Of a stretch of DNA of 51,414 nt, positions 18,429 through 51,414 are shown piece after piece (the first letter of the stretch is position 1; each line of letters starts with the position of its first letter). The stretch is taken from assembly GCA_029060065.1 (NCBI GenBank), contig JAIDUT010000073.1, positions 1-51,414 of the forward strand, read 5' to 3'. The notes under the pieces were generated by a model. The model worked only from the letters and a program-made list of their open reading frames with translations, was not told the DNA's origin and did not search any database. Both the position numbers and the translations under genes were made by a program. Source of the stretch: Clostridia bacterium. GTDB taxonomy: Bacteria > Bacillota > Clostridia > Christensenellales > UBA3700.

Positions 18429-18935
<507 letters not shown>

Positions 18936-18950
18936 TAGTAAAGGTAAATT

Positions 18951-19532
18951 ATGAACAACAAAGAAGCAATTATCCAAAAGATAATAGACGACGCTAACGC
19001 AGTGGCTGGCGCTAAAATAGCGGAGGCTAACGATACGGCAAGTCAAGTTTTAGCGAGAGCGCAAAGACAGGTTGACAGATTCAATGAGAGTAATTCAGGT
19101 AGGACTGACAAACTGTATCAAGAAGCGTTGGAGCGGAGCCAAGTCGTCGCAAATCTAGACATTAAAAAGCTCTTGCAAGGCAAGAAAAAGGAAATCATCG
19201 ACAAGGCGTTCGATGAGGCTTTGGACGCTATCAAGGCGGATAAAAAGACTTATCTCGCGCTTGTAGAGGGGATGATAATGTCTTGCTGTGAGGACGGGGA
19301 CGAAGTCGTTGTCGCAATGGAAGACGATAAAGTTATAACAAAGAAGTTGATTGCCGACATTGCAAAAAAGAGTAAGAAGTCGTTAAAGAAGAGCGAAGAG
19401 TTTGGAGATTTCAAAGGCGGAGTAATTTTGTCGGGTAAGAATTACGACAAAAACCTTACTTTGGAATTGGAACTTTCTTTGATTAAAGAAAAAATCGAGA
19501 GCAATATCGATTCGATTTTGTTTGGGGAGTAA
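18951..19532 (+). CDS. ntpE: V-type ATPase subunit E
   Basis: 193 aa. N-terminal long helix (IIQKIIDDANAVAGAKIAEAND) plus a C-terminal globular domain. Operon position also supports the call. Confidence 0.8.
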   Translation: MNNKEAIIQKIIDDANAVAGAKIAEANDTASQVLARAQRQVDRFNESNSGRTDKLYQEALERSQVVANLDIKKLLQGKKKEIIDKAFDEALDAIKADKKTYLALVEGMIMSCCEDGDEVVVAMEDDKVITKKLIADIAKKSKKSLKKSEEFGDFKGGVILSGKNYDKNLTLELELSLIKEKIESNIDSILFGE

Positions 19533-36814: not shown

Positions 36815-36855
36815 AAAATTAAGAAAGCGTGATTTAATTACGCTTTCTTAATTTT
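36815..36855. terminator. bidirectional rho-independent terminator between convergent genes
   Basis: A perfect 16-bp stem: AAAATTAAGAAAGCGT (36815-36830) pairs with ACGCTTTCTTAATTTT (36840-36855). A/T runs lie on both sides. Confidence 0.85.
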
Positions 36856-47403: not shown

Positions 47404-48771
47404 ATGGAAAGACAAGAAATATTAAATTGTATAGAAATTCAAAAAAAGAATAACGCTTTATTGGATTATAAGAAGAGAATAAAGGTCTTGAAGAAGTTAT
47501 ACAATAATATATTACTTCTCAAGAATGATATTTATCGCGCGCTAAAAGCCGACCTAAATAAGAGCGAGATAGAGAGCCAAACAACGGAAGTGGGCATGGT
47601 ACTTAGCGAAATATCCTATATGATAAAGCATATAAAGAAGTTTTCGCGCCCCAAGAATGTCGGAGGTTCGCTTATTCATTTCCCGTCAAAGAGCTGGAGC
47701 ATACCTTGTCCGTACGGTTGCGTACTCATTATGAGCCCGTGGAACTATCCATTTATGCTTTCTTTAGACCCATTGGTCGACGCGATTTCCGCAGGAAATA
47801 GCGTGGTGCTTAAGCCAAGCAGATATTCGAGCAATACCACTAATGTTATACAAAAACTCGTTGAGATGACTTTTGAAAAAGACGAAGTCATAGTAGTGAG
47901 TGGCGGTAGGGAAGAAAACGCATTTTTGCTTGAGCAAGACTTCGACTACATATTCTATACGGGTAGTACCGCAGTAGGAAAACTCGTAATGCAAAAGGCT
48001 TCGGAGAAGTTTACGCCCGTCACTTTGGAAATGGGCGGAAAAAGTCCTTGCATAGTCGATAAGACCGCCAATATACCTCTTTCGGCAAGACGCATAGTCT
48101 TTGGTAAGTTCCTCAACTGCGGACAGACTTGCGTAGCGCCTGACTTTGTTTATTGCGACAAATCTATCAAAGATAGACTTGTTGAAGAACTCAAAAAGCA
48201 AATTACTATCCAATATACCGACGACCAACTCGCCAATGAAGATTATCCTAAGATGATCAACCAAAAGCATTTTGACATGGTGAGAAGTTATATTGATAAG
48301 GATAGGGTGCTCTTTGGCGGAAATGTCGATGAGGAAAAACTTAAAATTCAACCTACGATATTAGACTCTGATTTCGACAGACTTGAGATGAGCCAAGAGG
48401 TATTCGGTCCAATTTTACCTATCGTAACTTTTGATAATTTAGACGAGGCAATCGCCAAAGTCAATTCCATGTCTACGCCTCTTGCGCTGTATTACTTCTC
48501 GGAAGATAAAGACAGTCAAAGCAAGGTCAAGACGTATTGCAAATTCGGCGGTGGCTGTATAAACGATACTATCATGCACATTGCGTCGTCTACTTTGCCT
48601 TTTGGCGGACTTAAGCATAGCGGTATGGGAGCATATCACGGGAAAGCGGGGTTTGATACCTTTACTCATTACAAGAGTATAATCGACAAAAAGACTTGGT
48701 TTGATATGCCTACGCGTTATCAGCCATATAACGATGCAAAGTATAAACTTATAAAGTTCTTTATGAAATAG
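47404..48771 (+). CDS. NAD(P)-dependent aldehyde dehydrogenase (class 3-like)
   Basis: LEMGGKSP with the catalytic Glu, FLNCGQTCVAPD with the catalytic Cys, and EVFGPILPI. Confidence 0.85.
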   Translation: MERQEILNCIEIQKKNNALLDYKKRIKVLKKLYNNILLLKNDIYRALKADLNKSEIESQTTEVGMVLSEISYMIKHIKKFSRPKNVGGSLIHFPSKSWSIPCPYGCVLIMSPWNYPFMLSLDPLVDAISAGNSVVLKPSRYSSNTTNVIQKLVEMTFEKDEVIVVSGGREENAFLLEQDFDYIFYTGSTAVGKLVMQKASEKFTPVTLEMGGKSPCIVDKTANIPLSARRIVFGKFLNCGQTCVAPDFVYCDKSIKDRLVEELKKQITIQYTDDQLANEDYPKMINQKHFDMVRSYIDKDRVLFGGNVDEEKLKIQPTILDSDFDRLEMSQEVFGPILPIVTFDNLDEAIAKVNSMSTPLALYYFSEDKDSQSKVKTYCKFGGGCINDTIMHIASSTLPFGGLKHSGMGAYHGKAGFDTFTHYKSIIDKKTWFDMPTRYQPYNDAKYKLIKFFMK

Positions 48772-48811
48772 CCCCGATACGTCAATTACTTTCAAAAGAA
48801 GAGGAGAAATT

Positions 48812-49012
48812 ATGTCAAACAATAGTCCATTTTGCACATGTAAGGATACCAAGTGTCCGTTGCACCCGACAAACCATGACAAAGGCTGTTCGCTGTGTAT
48901 AGCAAAAAATCTCCAATCAAGGGAAATACCCAGTTGCTTTTTCAACTTGGCAGATCCCGATATGAAAAGGCAAGGGTATACATTTGAGGACTTTGTAAAG
49001 TTGTTCAAATAA
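48812..49012 (+). CDS. small cysteine-rich protein (hypothetical)
   Basis: AAGAGGAG SD. 66 aa with CTCKDTKCPLHPTNHDKGCSLC, consistent with a metal-binding module. Confidence 0.45.
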   Translation: MSNNSPFCTCKDTKCPLHPTNHDKGCSLCIAKNLQSREIPSCFFNLADPDMKRQGYTFEDFVKLFK

Positions 49013-49043
49013 CGTCAATTTATCTCATTATATAATATTTATT

Positions 49044-49075
49044 AAACACGCAAAAATTTGCGTGTTTTTTATTTT
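49044..49075 (+). terminator. rho-independent terminator
   Basis: AAACACGCAAA pairs with TTTGCGTGTTT, followed by TTTTTTATTTT. Confidence 0.8.
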
Positions 49076-49123
49076 ACTATAAAGACTTCTATAATTTGTT
49101 AACATTTTCTAATTTTTCTAAAA

Positions 49124-49241
49124 AAAGTATACTTTTACTGAATAAACTTGTTTTTTCACGAAAATGCGATTTTTTCTCAAATACATTATAATTCAAGTGT
49201 TAAAATATTGCAATACATTATGGTCAGTAAAAGTATACTTT
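49124..49241. repeat. perfect 18-bp inverted repeat pair flanking an 82-bp segment
   Basis: AAAGTATACTTTTACTGA (49124-49141) and TCAGTAAAAGTATACTTT (49224-49241) are exact reverse complements. Confidence 0.85.
49185..49213 (-). promoter_or_regulatory. sigma-A promoter inside the inverted-repeat-bounded segment, facing away from the surface-protein gene
   Basis: The minus strand reads TTGCAA (49213-49208), a 17-nt spacer, then TATAAT (49190-49185). Confidence 0.55.
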
Positions 49242-49291
49242 ATTTGGAATGCGCCGAAAAAGCCATTTTGATTAGCCGAAAATCGACTTCA

Positions 49292-49321
49292 GTCATTTTG
49301 ACAACTACATGTCATTTTGAC
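49292..49321. promoter_or_regulatory. two copies of palindrome GTCATTTTGAC
   Basis: GTCA-N3-TGAC occurs at 49292-49302 and 49311-49321, 19 bp start-to-start. Both lie between the inverted repeat and the lipoprotein start codon. Confidence 0.45.
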
Positions 49322-49372
49322 TGCAGTGGAGAAACTCAACAGCTTAAAAAGTATACCAAAAGAGGAAAACAT

Positions 49373-51414
49373 ATGAACTCAAAGACATTAAGAACAAGAT
49401 ACTTAAAATCTGCGTTACTGATAATAACAATTTGCTTAATATTAGGAGCGATAAGCGCATGCTTGCCGTTTAATGTATCAATACCCGAATTGGACGACAA
49501 TTCAATTAGCGATACAGCTATGACTATTACGCAGAATACAAGCGACGGATTAGGCGAGTTTAACAACGGATGTTCTTATATCTACACAGATAAGACTTTA
49601 ATTGACAATTATAGGGCAGACGATCCCGATACGCCTTATGATTTATCAACTCATCAAGTAGCAAAGACAGACAGCAACAGAGGTACGCAAGATAACCCAT
49701 ACGTTATATCCACTACTGATGATTGGGAAACTTTTGCCAAGATGATGGGACCGTCTACCTCGGATAGAGGCTTAAATAAATATTTTGTACTTGCAGATGA
49801 TTTAGATTTTGACGGCGTCGAGTTCCACCCAATACCAATCTTCAAAGGTACGTTTTACGGAATGGGACATCAACTTCTCAATATCACCACAAGTAGCACT
49901 ACTTGGACATATTGGAACGGCTCAGCTTGGACGACTATCGGAACTTACACCTCAGCAGGTTTTGGAGTTTTTTGCAGGACAGATAGCGCGACTATTACCG
50001 ATTTGATTTTGCAAGATTATTTTATTACGGGAATGCCAAATGCCGTTGCATTGACTTGGAGTAACTATCACGGCGCATTAGTGGGAGTAACTTGCGGTAA
50101 CGACTCAATTCTTAACTGCCATTTGCAAGGAGAGATAAACGGCGGAACTGTTACTTATGCCAATTACGGATGGTGCGGTGGAATCGTAGGATTAGTACAT
50201 AATGCTTTATCTAGCGGAAATCCTACGGCTACCATATATCGCTGTAGCGTAAATACGATTATGGTAATCAGTACTAACGCAAAAACGAATTTCCATTGCG
50301 GGGGAATAATAGGAGACCCCAATTCCGGAGTGAATGTGCATATCTATGATTGCGCGAGTTATCTTAATTTTATAAACGCAACAAGACTTGGCTATATTGG
50401 CAGTGTTGCGGGATATTTAAGAGAGAATGGAAGAGTAGATATTGAAGATTGCGTTACAGTGCTTCGTTCTGCTTATAATACTCAATATTCAAATGGGGCA
50501 CTATATGCTTTCAATTCTGCAAAAACCGTAAAAAACGTTTATGTCGACGCAGTTATCGGAACAAGCACTGCAATGAATTCTGCATCCGGCAATCCAACGA
50601 CTTCTTCCAACGTCCACATCGGACCTTACGTAAATACTACTCCTATTTCGCCGGCGCCTACTAAACATACAACTACTGCAAACTTATTAAGTACTGCGCA
50701 GGCAGACGTTGGGGTTCATCTACCGTCGCAAATATGGGATGCTACAAAAATATCCGAACAAGTTACTCCTGATAATTCACCAGTGCGCAACTACTTATTA
50801 GCGTTTATCAATTTCCGCAATTTGAACAACGGCGGTAATAATGAAGAGAAAGTAGGTCTTGAAGATGGGGTTGGTTACATTGTTGGGGATAGCCTTCCTA
50901 CAAATACTACTAATACGAATTTTTCTAGTTGGATATCTGCAAATAAGTCGAGTAGTCACGTATTCAAAGGTTGGACGGACGACCCTAAAGGCGAAAGCGA
51001 GCCGTTTACAGAATTGCCGGCAGGCTTTTTCGGCAACGTCACTTTATACGCGGTATGGGGCTTACCGGACAGCTACGTAACATCAAACATAAAGACAAGT
51101 CTTACTTCAGATAAGACATTAATAGAATACGACAGCGTGGAGAGCATAACTCTAACCGCTAAAGTTACGCATACCTCGCCGTCAAGCGGAGCAATGACCA
51201 ATCCGTCAGTTACGTATAATTTCGTGCAAGACGGAGATAACAAAACTACTTCGGAGGATGTAAAAAGTAGCGGAGTACTGTCTGTCAAGACAGTAAAGGA
51301 CAGCGGAAAATATACGTTTAAGTATAGACTTACAGACGGTCTAGAGCCGTTATGGTATTATGACGGAACGCCGAGCAATAGTGTAGACATCAAGATAGAG
51401 AAAGGTAAGTGGGA
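49373..51414 (+). CDS. large surface lipoprotein with GLUG-type repeats and a Listeria-Bacteroides (InlB B-repeat-like) module; 3' end outside the window
   Basis: Not in the ORF track (no stop within the window). I read the frame codon by codon from ATG 49373 (SD AAAGAGGAAAA) to 51412 and found no stop. The signal peptide has lipobox ISAC. GLUG-like units are ILNCHLQGEI..WCGGIVGL and IYRCSV..HCGGIIGD. A later module reads HVFKGWTDDPKGESEPFTELPAGFFGNVTLYAVWG. Confidence 0.7.
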   Translation, partial: MNSKTLRTRYLKSALLIITICLILGAISACLPFNVSIPELDDNSISDTAMTITQNTSDGLGEFNNGCSYIYTDKTLIDNYRADDPDTPYDLSTHQVAKTDSNRGTQDNPYVISTTDDWETFAKMMGPSTSDRGLNKYFVLADDLDFDGVEFHPIPIFKGTFYGMGHQLLNITTSSTTWTYWNGSAWTTIGTYTSAGFGVFCRTDSATITDLILQDYFITGMPNAVALTWSNYHGALVGVTCGNDSILNCHLQGEINGGTVTYANYGWCGGIVGLVHNALSSGNPTATIYRCSVNTIMVISTNAKTNFHCGGIIGDPNSGVNVHIYDCASYLNFINATRLGYIGSVAGYLRENGRVDIEDCVTVLRSAYNTQYSNGALYAFNSAKTVKNVYVDAVIGTSTAMNSASGNPTTSSNVHIGPYVNTTPISPAPTKHTTTANLLSTAQADVGVHLPSQIWDATKISEQVTPDNSPVRNYLLAFINFRNLNNGGNNEEKVGLEDGVGYIVGDSLPTNTTNTNFSSWISANKSSSHVFKGWTDDPKGESEPFTELPAGFFGNVTLYAVWGLPDSYVTSNIKTSLTSDKTLIEYDSVESITLTAKVTHTSPSSGAMTNPSVTYNFVQDGDNKTTSEDVKSSGVLSVKTVKDSGKYTFKYRLTDGLEPLWYYDGTPSNSVDIKIEKGKW

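Follow-up and report, generated by a model that had tools for sequence, protein, structure and literature searches.

In Bacteroides fragilis, dispersed promoter cassettes with one inverted-repeat consensus are reportedly flipped in trans by a small serine recombinase and rest mostly in the OFF orientation. In Clostridioides difficile, the tyrosine recombinase RecV controls the cwpV, flgB and cmrRST switches, the inverted repeats of which differ from one another. The hix and gix sites of the Hin and Gin systems are dyads of 26 bp that contain an A/T tract and have a crossover centre of 2 bp, and the architectural protein with which Sin works is HU/Hbsu, not Fis. Members of the Christensenellales abound in the gut and have rarely been brought into culture. 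The capsular-polysaccharide promoter invertons of B. fragilis, with the serine invertase Mpi, go back to Coyne et al. 2003, as cited in PMC11602134; the mpl (P35) lipoproteins of Mycoplasma penetrans have individual invertible promoters according to PMC2268961, which summarises Horino et al. 2003. The system analyzed here is functionally closest to these two (the Mpi system of B. fragilis and the mpl family of M. penetrans), its candidate enzyme being of neither system's family. Full-text searches of the literature yielded no description of invertons in Christensenellales.

The DNA under study (hereafter, the window) is a stretch of 51,414 nucleotides from a Clostridia bacterium of the order Christensenellales; G, C and L numbers are our handles for genomes, contigs and loci. 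We hold with good confidence that the segment 49116-49249 of the window belongs to a set of about 20 promoter invertons in the genome, that it is intact, and that it would be flipped, most likely, by a serine recombinase encoded on another contig (C65).

The element at 49116-49249 and its flanks

A preliminary description of the window, made from its letters, reported 18-bp perfect inverted repeats flanking 82 bp, and its coordinates and sequences are all exact: the arm AAAGTATACTTTTACTGA at 49124-49141 recurs at 49224-49241 as its exact reverse complement. Among loops of up to 150 nt, the window has no longer perfect inverted repeat, while the maximum arm in randomised windows (100 first-order Markov randomisations) was 10-14 nt. 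The second-longest short-range inverted repeat of the window, at 36815 (16-bp arms, 9-nt loop), is probably a terminator. The repeat can be extended to 26 nt on each side (49116-49141 and 49224-49249) at 92% complementarity (24/26), and the first 12 bases of the 18-nt arm, AAAGTATACTTT, are themselves a palindrome, referred to below as the core. The functional unit is a 27-bp dyad-symmetric site rather than the 18-bp arm, with its centre at the AT of GTATAC; the centres of the two sites are 106 bp apart. The half-site consensus derived from 54 elements reads, from the centre outwards, TACTTTTTTTGGAA for the outer and TACTTTTaCTGAC for the inner half, and half-sites of 13-14 bp around a 2-bp centre fit the dimer site of a serine recombinase. 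The features of the locus, in order, are as follows.

48812-49012, plus strand: DUF6485 gene, 66 aa, the upstream neighbour (ORF list; Pfam PF20095, E = 4e-29)
49044-49077, both strands: terminator, hairpin (49044-49067) and T run (terminator scan)
49078-49115, no strand: T-flank block between terminator and left site; belongs to the repeated unit, spacing being the only role seen
49116-49142, no strand: left recombination site, outer and inner half-sites TTCTAAAAAAAGTA and TACTTTTACTGAA around AT 49129/49130 (inverted repeat)
49143-49222, minus strand: invertible interior with -35 box TTGCAA (49213-49208), -10 box TATAAT (49190-49185) and predicted start at ~49178 (promoter scan)
49223-49249, no strand: right recombination site, GTCAGTAAAAGTA and TACTTTATTTGGAA (inverted repeat and half-site consensus)
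49250-49372, plus strand: leader, the 5' UTR in the ON state, with ribosome-binding site AAAGAGGAAAA; no fixed promoter found
49373-51414, plus strand: large lipoprotein gene, product MNSKTLRTRYLKSALLIITICLILGAISAC..., exceeding the contig end (ORF)

The minus-strand TTGCAA-17-TATAAT (10/12) was the top promoter-like site of the promoter scan in 48700-49500, and is presumably an active sigma-70-type promoter, judged by its match to the consensus. As the preliminary description had it, this promoter is currently directed at the terminator and away from the lipoprotein gene; the hairpin and its T run are found downstream of it on the minus strand, and the scan revealed no plus-strand promoter-like site in 49242-49372, i.e. 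from the right arm to the ATG at 49373. The terminator is predicted to serve both strands, ending the DUF6485 transcript on the plus strand and stopping the cassette transcript of the OFF orientation on the minus strand. When folded, the minus-strand RNA 49178-49030 ends in a 10-bp terminator hairpin (z = -2.5); the U tract of this minus-strand terminator is weak in the window copy (UUUAAUAAAU). The DUF6485 gene itself is outside the switch and marks the unique chromosomal side.

On the opposite side, the 123-nt leader is common to a paralog on contig C94 and, in part, to other paralogs, and no Rfam family scored above the gathering threshold for either the leader or the cassette. The lipoprotein gene comprises at least 880 codons on a longer ENA contig, which is identical to the window across the element and lengthens the frame, which again runs off the contig; no Pfam domain was matched in the window lipoprotein. 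Expression of the gene at 49373 probably has to wait for a recombinase encoded elsewhere to turn the cassette round.

A motif of ~30 nt (GTCATTTCGAsCGnAGTsGAGAAATCTCAA) is seen at 49283-49340 of the window and at many intergenic places in the genus (e.g. L096, L098, L154 and G000 C49, C66, C80), in leaders behind cassettes and also beside unrelated terminators. Spurious ORFs (such as MSFRPKWRNL and VISTEAEKS) result from the motif, which may represent a REP-like or an RNA element.

The cassette family and its inversion

The genome (1.57 Mb in 110 contigs) contains 21 occurrences of the 18-mer at up to two mismatches, with none for the reversed control, and 38 exact copies of the 12-nt core vs 0.34 expected. 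A search for this 18-mer at other surface genes had been proposed in the preliminary description, and the cassettes that it brought up do precede paralogous genes for large lipoproteins or secreted proteins. Six cassettes are complete (C6, C9, C21, C82, C89 and C94) and 29 contig ends lie in or at a cassette, which together give an estimate of ~20 cassettes in the genome. Two types of arm occur, a symmetric one with TACTGA at both inner sides, as in the window copy, and an asymmetric one with TACTGA beside the -35 box and TCTTGT at the far end. Every copy is placed in the same context, with a terminator flank on one side and, on the other, a leader carrying a ribosome-binding site and a signal-peptide/lipobox gene. 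The T-flank (~95 nt) is part of the repeat, as illustrated by the window segment 49044-49110 (query 745-811), which has 13 further matches in the same genome. A hairpin terminator is found ~55 nt from the core in 17 of the 20 copies, and with its position so maintained the T-flank is best read as a built-in insulator.

At least 15 large paralogs (550 to >855 aa, all exceeding contig ends) are located behind sister cassettes; they fall into three N-terminal subfamilies. Other cassette-controlled genes encode a zinc-ribbon membrane protein and a 351-aa lipoprotein. At two loci (G000 C70:88-300 and C25:5860-5971; orthologs L146, L201, L226, L168, L198 and L221, among which the orientation varies) the terminator side has no terminator and a gene is found instead, the products starting with MTKLYFDNPQG... 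and MENVKKLL..., the latter of which we take, by eye, to resemble an HD-domain phosphohydrolase. With a gene in place of the terminator, the cassette at these loci would toggle two divergent genes.

Within the T-flanks, a 15-bp palindrome TTCTAA-N3-TTAGAA was noticed by eye 22-36 nt outside the core in 14 of 20 G000 copies, with a degenerate copy in the window at ~49088-49102; it was not seen in the G013 and G016 T-flanks examined. We considered it as an accessory site for the recombinase and rejected this idea on account of its absence from those T-flanks and of its length, a dimer needing more.

The cassette family inverts, as observed in the orientations within the genome, in the contig breaks and at the same loci between assemblies. 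Judged from the gene flanks, three copies are ON (C6, C87 and C90), nine are OFF and six are broken or ambiguous; judged from the terminator flanks, 4-5 copies have the promoter directed to the gene side, away from the terminator, 13 have it directed at the terminator, and two are broken. Moreover, paralogous interiors placed on the same type of flank are found to align either way round. The assembly itself carries a record of this variation. Its k-mer length was 77, as deduced from the 16 contig pairs that overlap by exactly 77 nt, and seven contigs (C30, C62, C95, C68, C80, C105 and C38, of which C30 is 31.8 kb long) end exactly at the inner edge of the repeat, with 59-64 nt of genome-unique flank in each of the terminal 77-mers. 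A contig stops at this edge only if reads anchored in the flank continue in two ways, which points to a mixed orientation in the sampled population.

Comparison between assemblies leads to the same result. The flanks of L156 and L179 are 98% identical over 7.4 kb, and what L156 has of the interior (45 nt, to the contig end) equals, without a mismatch, the reverse complement of the corresponding end of the L179 interior. Likewise, L177 and its counterpart on G016:C16 share 96% identity over 1.1 kb, and their interiors match at 0.93 when inverted vs 0.71 in the same orientation. Overall, 9 of ~27 clusters of orthologous flanks (from G000, G013, G016 and metagenome contigs) are mixed in promoter direction. 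The pair L207 and L214 (G016 vs G013), also considered as a clean inversion, was rejected, the interiors being of different subtypes (0.63 vs 0.66 identity).

The inverton reading offered in the preliminary description is therefore borne out by inversion seen among members of the family, though none was seen at the window locus, where six of six independent assemblies (G000, G003, G001, G007, G013 and a JGI contig) are OFF. Since the family as a whole has ~80% of its copies OFF (18 of 22 in the lipoprotein cluster), chance would give six of six in roughly one case out of four, and the count is uninformative on flipping. The window copy would be expected to flip in view of its intact sites and promoter. 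In G001, G007 and the JGI contig the orthologous locus likewise has both sites intact; the G013 contig ends inside the interior and shows the left site alone. In the closest species (G003:C59, L094) the window-orthologous locus carries the asymmetric subtype with the TCTTGT end, the window copy being symmetric, a difference at an orthologous site which suggests that interiors have been exchanged between loci. A search for contigs encoding the DUF6485 protein matched the source contig alone, in which the element is identical, and the homologs from a search for related loci with the aldehyde dehydrogenase all came from other orders and shared no more than 57% identity.

The pairs of sites come in few lengths. 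Centre-to-centre distances of promoter-bearing pairs are 94-96 bp (n = 45), 104-106 bp (n = 12) and 135 bp (n = 4), and those of pairs adjacent to a recombinase gene (see below) are 115 bp (n = 9). The preliminary description had regarded 82 bp as short for a recombinase-mediated inversion; this reservation falls away, such distances being the norm of the family. The four classes correspond to ~9, 10, 11 and 13 helical turns at 10.45 bp, and near-integral numbers of turns suggest a requirement for both sites to be on one face of the helix. On the other hand, only four classes are known, and the quantisation could reflect descent from a few subfamilies instead of selection. As to the point of exchange, a C variant located four bases from the centre at L177 and G016:C16 stays with the gene-side outer half-site in both orientations, which places the exchange at the centre or in the inner half; the crossover would presumably fall at the central AT. 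Being palindromic, this AT leaves the sites without intrinsic polarity, so that the preference for inversion over deletion is unaccounted for by the site sequence.

Candidate recombinases

A search for tyrosine and serine invertases, also proposed in the preliminary description, identified three recombinases in the genome: two tyrosine enzymes (on C81 and C50) and one serine enzyme (on C65). None is encoded in the window, just as had been noted there. The caveat attached to that absence loses its force with the finding that the C65 serine recombinase tracks the sites across the genus.

The C65 gene (C65:62220-62828) encodes the sole small serine recombinase of the genome, a protein of ~200 aa. 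Its N-terminal resolvase catalytic domain matches PF00239 with 99.8 bits (Pfam cut-off 23.3) and contains the motif YARVS with the conserved serine, aligned with Sin and gamma-delta resolvase. The best solved structure is that of Sin (2r0q, E = 6e-28, residues 6-156), followed by the gamma-delta and Tn3 resolvases and then by Gin (3uj3/4m6f, residues 6-192, E = 1e-13). The protein scores 47.1 bits against the family of the Mpi master DNA invertase (NF009949), below the equivalog cut-off of 272, and is not a member of it.

The 18-mer sites are present in 18 of 23 species of the genus, and an ortholog of the C65 recombinase (at least 68% identity) in 17 of the 23, including 16 of the 18 species with the 18-mer. 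Beyond the genus, the 18-mer is multi-copy in only one sister genus, i.e. in 2 of the 150 genera sampled, with a lone match in a third. One species (G010) has the recombinase without the 18-mer, and in this case the variant cores GTGTAC and GTCTAC are found beside its two recombinase genes. Among the six species lacking the ortholog, sites are absent from four, one has a genome only 70% complete, and G006 has five arms only and no serine recombinase; four of the six carry only large (~500-aa) serine recombinases, and G009, also without the ortholog, has in addition one 168-aa serine recombinase frame. More distant homologs of the C65 protein (50-65% identity) are widespread in the order, including in genomes without cassette sites.

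A recombinase gene beside its own site is the classical arrangement. In 9 of 14 loci examined in other species, a pair of sites 115 bp apart is situated ~90-150 nt upstream of the recombinase gene (L236, L238, L239, L241, L242, L245, L246, L248 and L249). All nine belong to a sister clade of the genus, the recombinase of which is 68-74% identical to that of C65, and all nine pairs enclose a promoter (TTGAAT-like -35 and TATAAT-like -10) that faces the gene. With the recombinase gene behind a cassette of its own, the ability to switch would itself be phase-variable in this clade. Asymmetric centres (GTGTAC/GTACAC and GTCTAC/GTAGAC) were noted in some of these recombinase-adjacent sites.

The C65 serine recombinase is the most likely enzyme for the window cassette, presumably acting in trans; that it would catalyze the flip is suggested by its co-occurrence with the sites and by its adjacency to them, both of which are correlative. 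Directly upstream of the recombinase gene we noted three small ORFs (G000 C65:61195-61984, L011:464-1253), the products of which resemble, by eye, XRE-family helix-turn-helix proteins, and, between these ORFs and the recombinase gene, the palindromes TAGAAATTTCTA. The small ORFs and palindromes may control the recombinase.

The two tyrosine recombinases show other patterns. The XerS-like enzyme (C81:22713-23795) occurs in 23 of 23 species, including those without the 18-mer, and a perfect 18-8-18 palindrome TAGTAAACTATTCGCAAA, unrelated to the cassette sites, is found 156 nt upstream of its gene (L009:2673-2716); this is probably its dif-type site. The C50 enzyme is strain-specific, the genus offering no ortholog of it. 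Around the strain-specific integrase gene at 18495-19427 lie three copies of TTGAAAGTGTACTTTCAAAAA, one of them reversed (C50:13669, 19475 and 23382); their core resembles the cassette core, the arms differ, and they may serve a mobile element as attachment or operator sites.

Competing explanations and comparison with known systems

Of the competing explanations, one leaves the DNA of the window copy fixed: the minus-strand promoter would simply yield a terminated RNA of ~135 nt, an sRNA or a by-product, with the lipoprotein gene silent or transcribed by read-through. Much the same alternative had been raised in the preliminary description, and its transcript survives as a prediction, with a fold that ends at the hairpin (z = -2.5); the sRNA function is the less likely part, the terminator recurring across the family in the manner of an insulator. 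In fact, different branches of the genus have different T-flank sequences, of unchanged length and with the terminator retained, which suits an insulator better than an sRNA with a target, and Rfam offers no match. The same orientation in six of six orthologous assemblies speaks for a fixed copy, but is not significant at the OFF rate of the family, and the sites (in the window, 18/18 perfect and 24/26 extended) have stayed intact, as they have at the orthologous loci of G001, G007 and the JGI contig, which argues for selection on them. We consider a fixed copy unlikely. It is likewise unlikely, and a little more so, that the same switch is flipped by the XerS-like tyrosine recombinase and not by the serine enzyme. 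The multi-locus invertase of C. difficile is a tyrosine enzyme, and the cassette site can also be read as two ~11-bp arms around a 6-bp spacer GTATAC, which would fit such an enzyme. Tyrosine enzymes act as multi-locus invertases in M. penetrans as well (PMC2268961), and the XerS-like protein is the only other recombinase conserved in the genus. This very conservation, however, extends equally to the five species without the 18-mer, four of which are without a small serine recombinase; the XerS-like enzyme has the unrelated palindrome TAGTAAACTATTCGCAAA of its own, and its gene is never found beside a cassette, unlike the serine recombinase gene.

Two further explanations were weighed. A promoter-carrying MITE, with the arms as terminal inverted repeats and copies spread by transposition, would agree with elements that are multi-copy, short, bounded by inverted repeats and prone to break assemblies. 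We nevertheless regard it as very improbable: no target-site duplications or direct repeats are found outside the arms, the bases there being themselves inverted (TTCTAAAA / TTTGGAA); all copies sit in one asymmetric context of terminator flank and leader; orthologous loci retain both arms with the interior alone reversed; nothing matched in phage or plasmid collections; and a PF00239 search of the genome yielded the C65 recombinase only, with no IS607-type serine transposase. Finally, the arms are dyad-symmetric, as protein-binding sites are, and their spacings are in helical phase, as would be fitting for a pair of operators bound by a looping transcription regulator with no DNA rearrangement. 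This alternative, also raised in the preliminary description, does not hold up against interiors that are reverse-complemented at the same loci and contigs that branch at the site edges, and of all the explanations it has the slightest chance of being correct.

The reading of 49116-49249 as a promoter inverton flipped by the C65 recombinase implies the following sequence of events. In the OFF state, as assembled, transcription from the promoter would cross the left site and the T-flank and stop in the hairpin (49067-49044), giving a minus-strand RNA of ~135 nt that starts at ~49178 and leaving the lipoprotein gene silent. Dimers of the C65 recombinase bound to both sites would form a synapse over a DNA loop of ~100 bp, in which the strands would be exchanged at the central AT. 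In the ON state, the promoter would transcribe the right site, then the 123-nt leader and then the lipoprotein gene. With every copy served in trans by one enzyme, the selection of surface lipoproteins shown by a cell, out of at least 15, would keep changing.

A broader proposal, which we put forward tentatively and think rather doubtful when taken as a whole, is that the genus runs a hierarchically gated network of surface variation, with an enhancer-free Sin-like recombinase and ~20-25 ultra-short cassettes. As parts of this proposal, the quantised lengths would imply a tightly looped synapse, in which geometry and not the palindromic AT would enforce inversion; each cassette would have its own OFF-side terminator, with two loci toggling two genes; cells of the sister clade would alternate between 'able to switch' and 'locked'; and interiors seem to be exchanged between loci, as in the G003 subtype.

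The element is in all probability a real phase-variation switch, of a familiar kind and in a bacterial group for which the literature searches gave no description of it. If the proposed scheme is true, a 1.6-Mb genome spends ~20 switches on at least 15 large lipoprotein paralogs, which affects how the host, phages and metagenomic binning see strains. Cassettes account for ~13% of all contig ends in this assembly and are thus a practical cause of fragmented assemblies in the group. The compact system, a pair of sites ~100 bp apart and one enzyme of 200 aa, would also suit as a model for very-short-loop inversion.

With respect to its enzyme, the system is close to Sin (Tn552 bin3 and staphylococcal plasmids), a small serine recombinase of Bacillota with the closest solved structure; however, Sin acts on directly repeated res sites with an accessory site, and here the sites are inverted and ~100 bp apart. 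Hin/hix and Gin/gix share with it a serine enzyme of ~190-200 aa with a C-terminal helix-turn-helix. In those systems the inverted segment measures kilobases, there is one locus, and supercoiling and a Fis-bound enhancer are required, in contrast to the ~20 loci of ~100 bp described here, with their palindromic central dinucleotide and a candidate enzyme that is nearer to Sin than to Gin. The RecV system of C. difficile is similar in its host phylum (Bacillota), in its short promoter or regulatory invertons, in the use of one recombinase in trans and in a cell-wall protein target, but it has a tyrosine enzyme, differing repeats and far fewer copies, as opposed to a serine candidate, a common core and ~20 copies. 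According to PMC2268961, the mpl family of M. penetrans resembles it in that a small genome harbours a large lipoprotein family at several loci, each with its own short invertible promoter; the candidate enzymes named there are tyrosine recombinases near the mpl genes, and organisms and sites are unrelated. The likeness to the Mpi system of B. fragilis extends to many cassettes with one repeat consensus, one surface structure for each, a single serine recombinase in trans and a predominance of the OFF state. The differences are that the present system belongs to Bacillota (Christensenellales), has an unrelated site and cassettes about half as long (94-106 bp centre-to-centre), targets lipoproteins rather than polysaccharide operons, has a terminator built in on the OFF side, and would rely on an enzyme outside the Mpi family.
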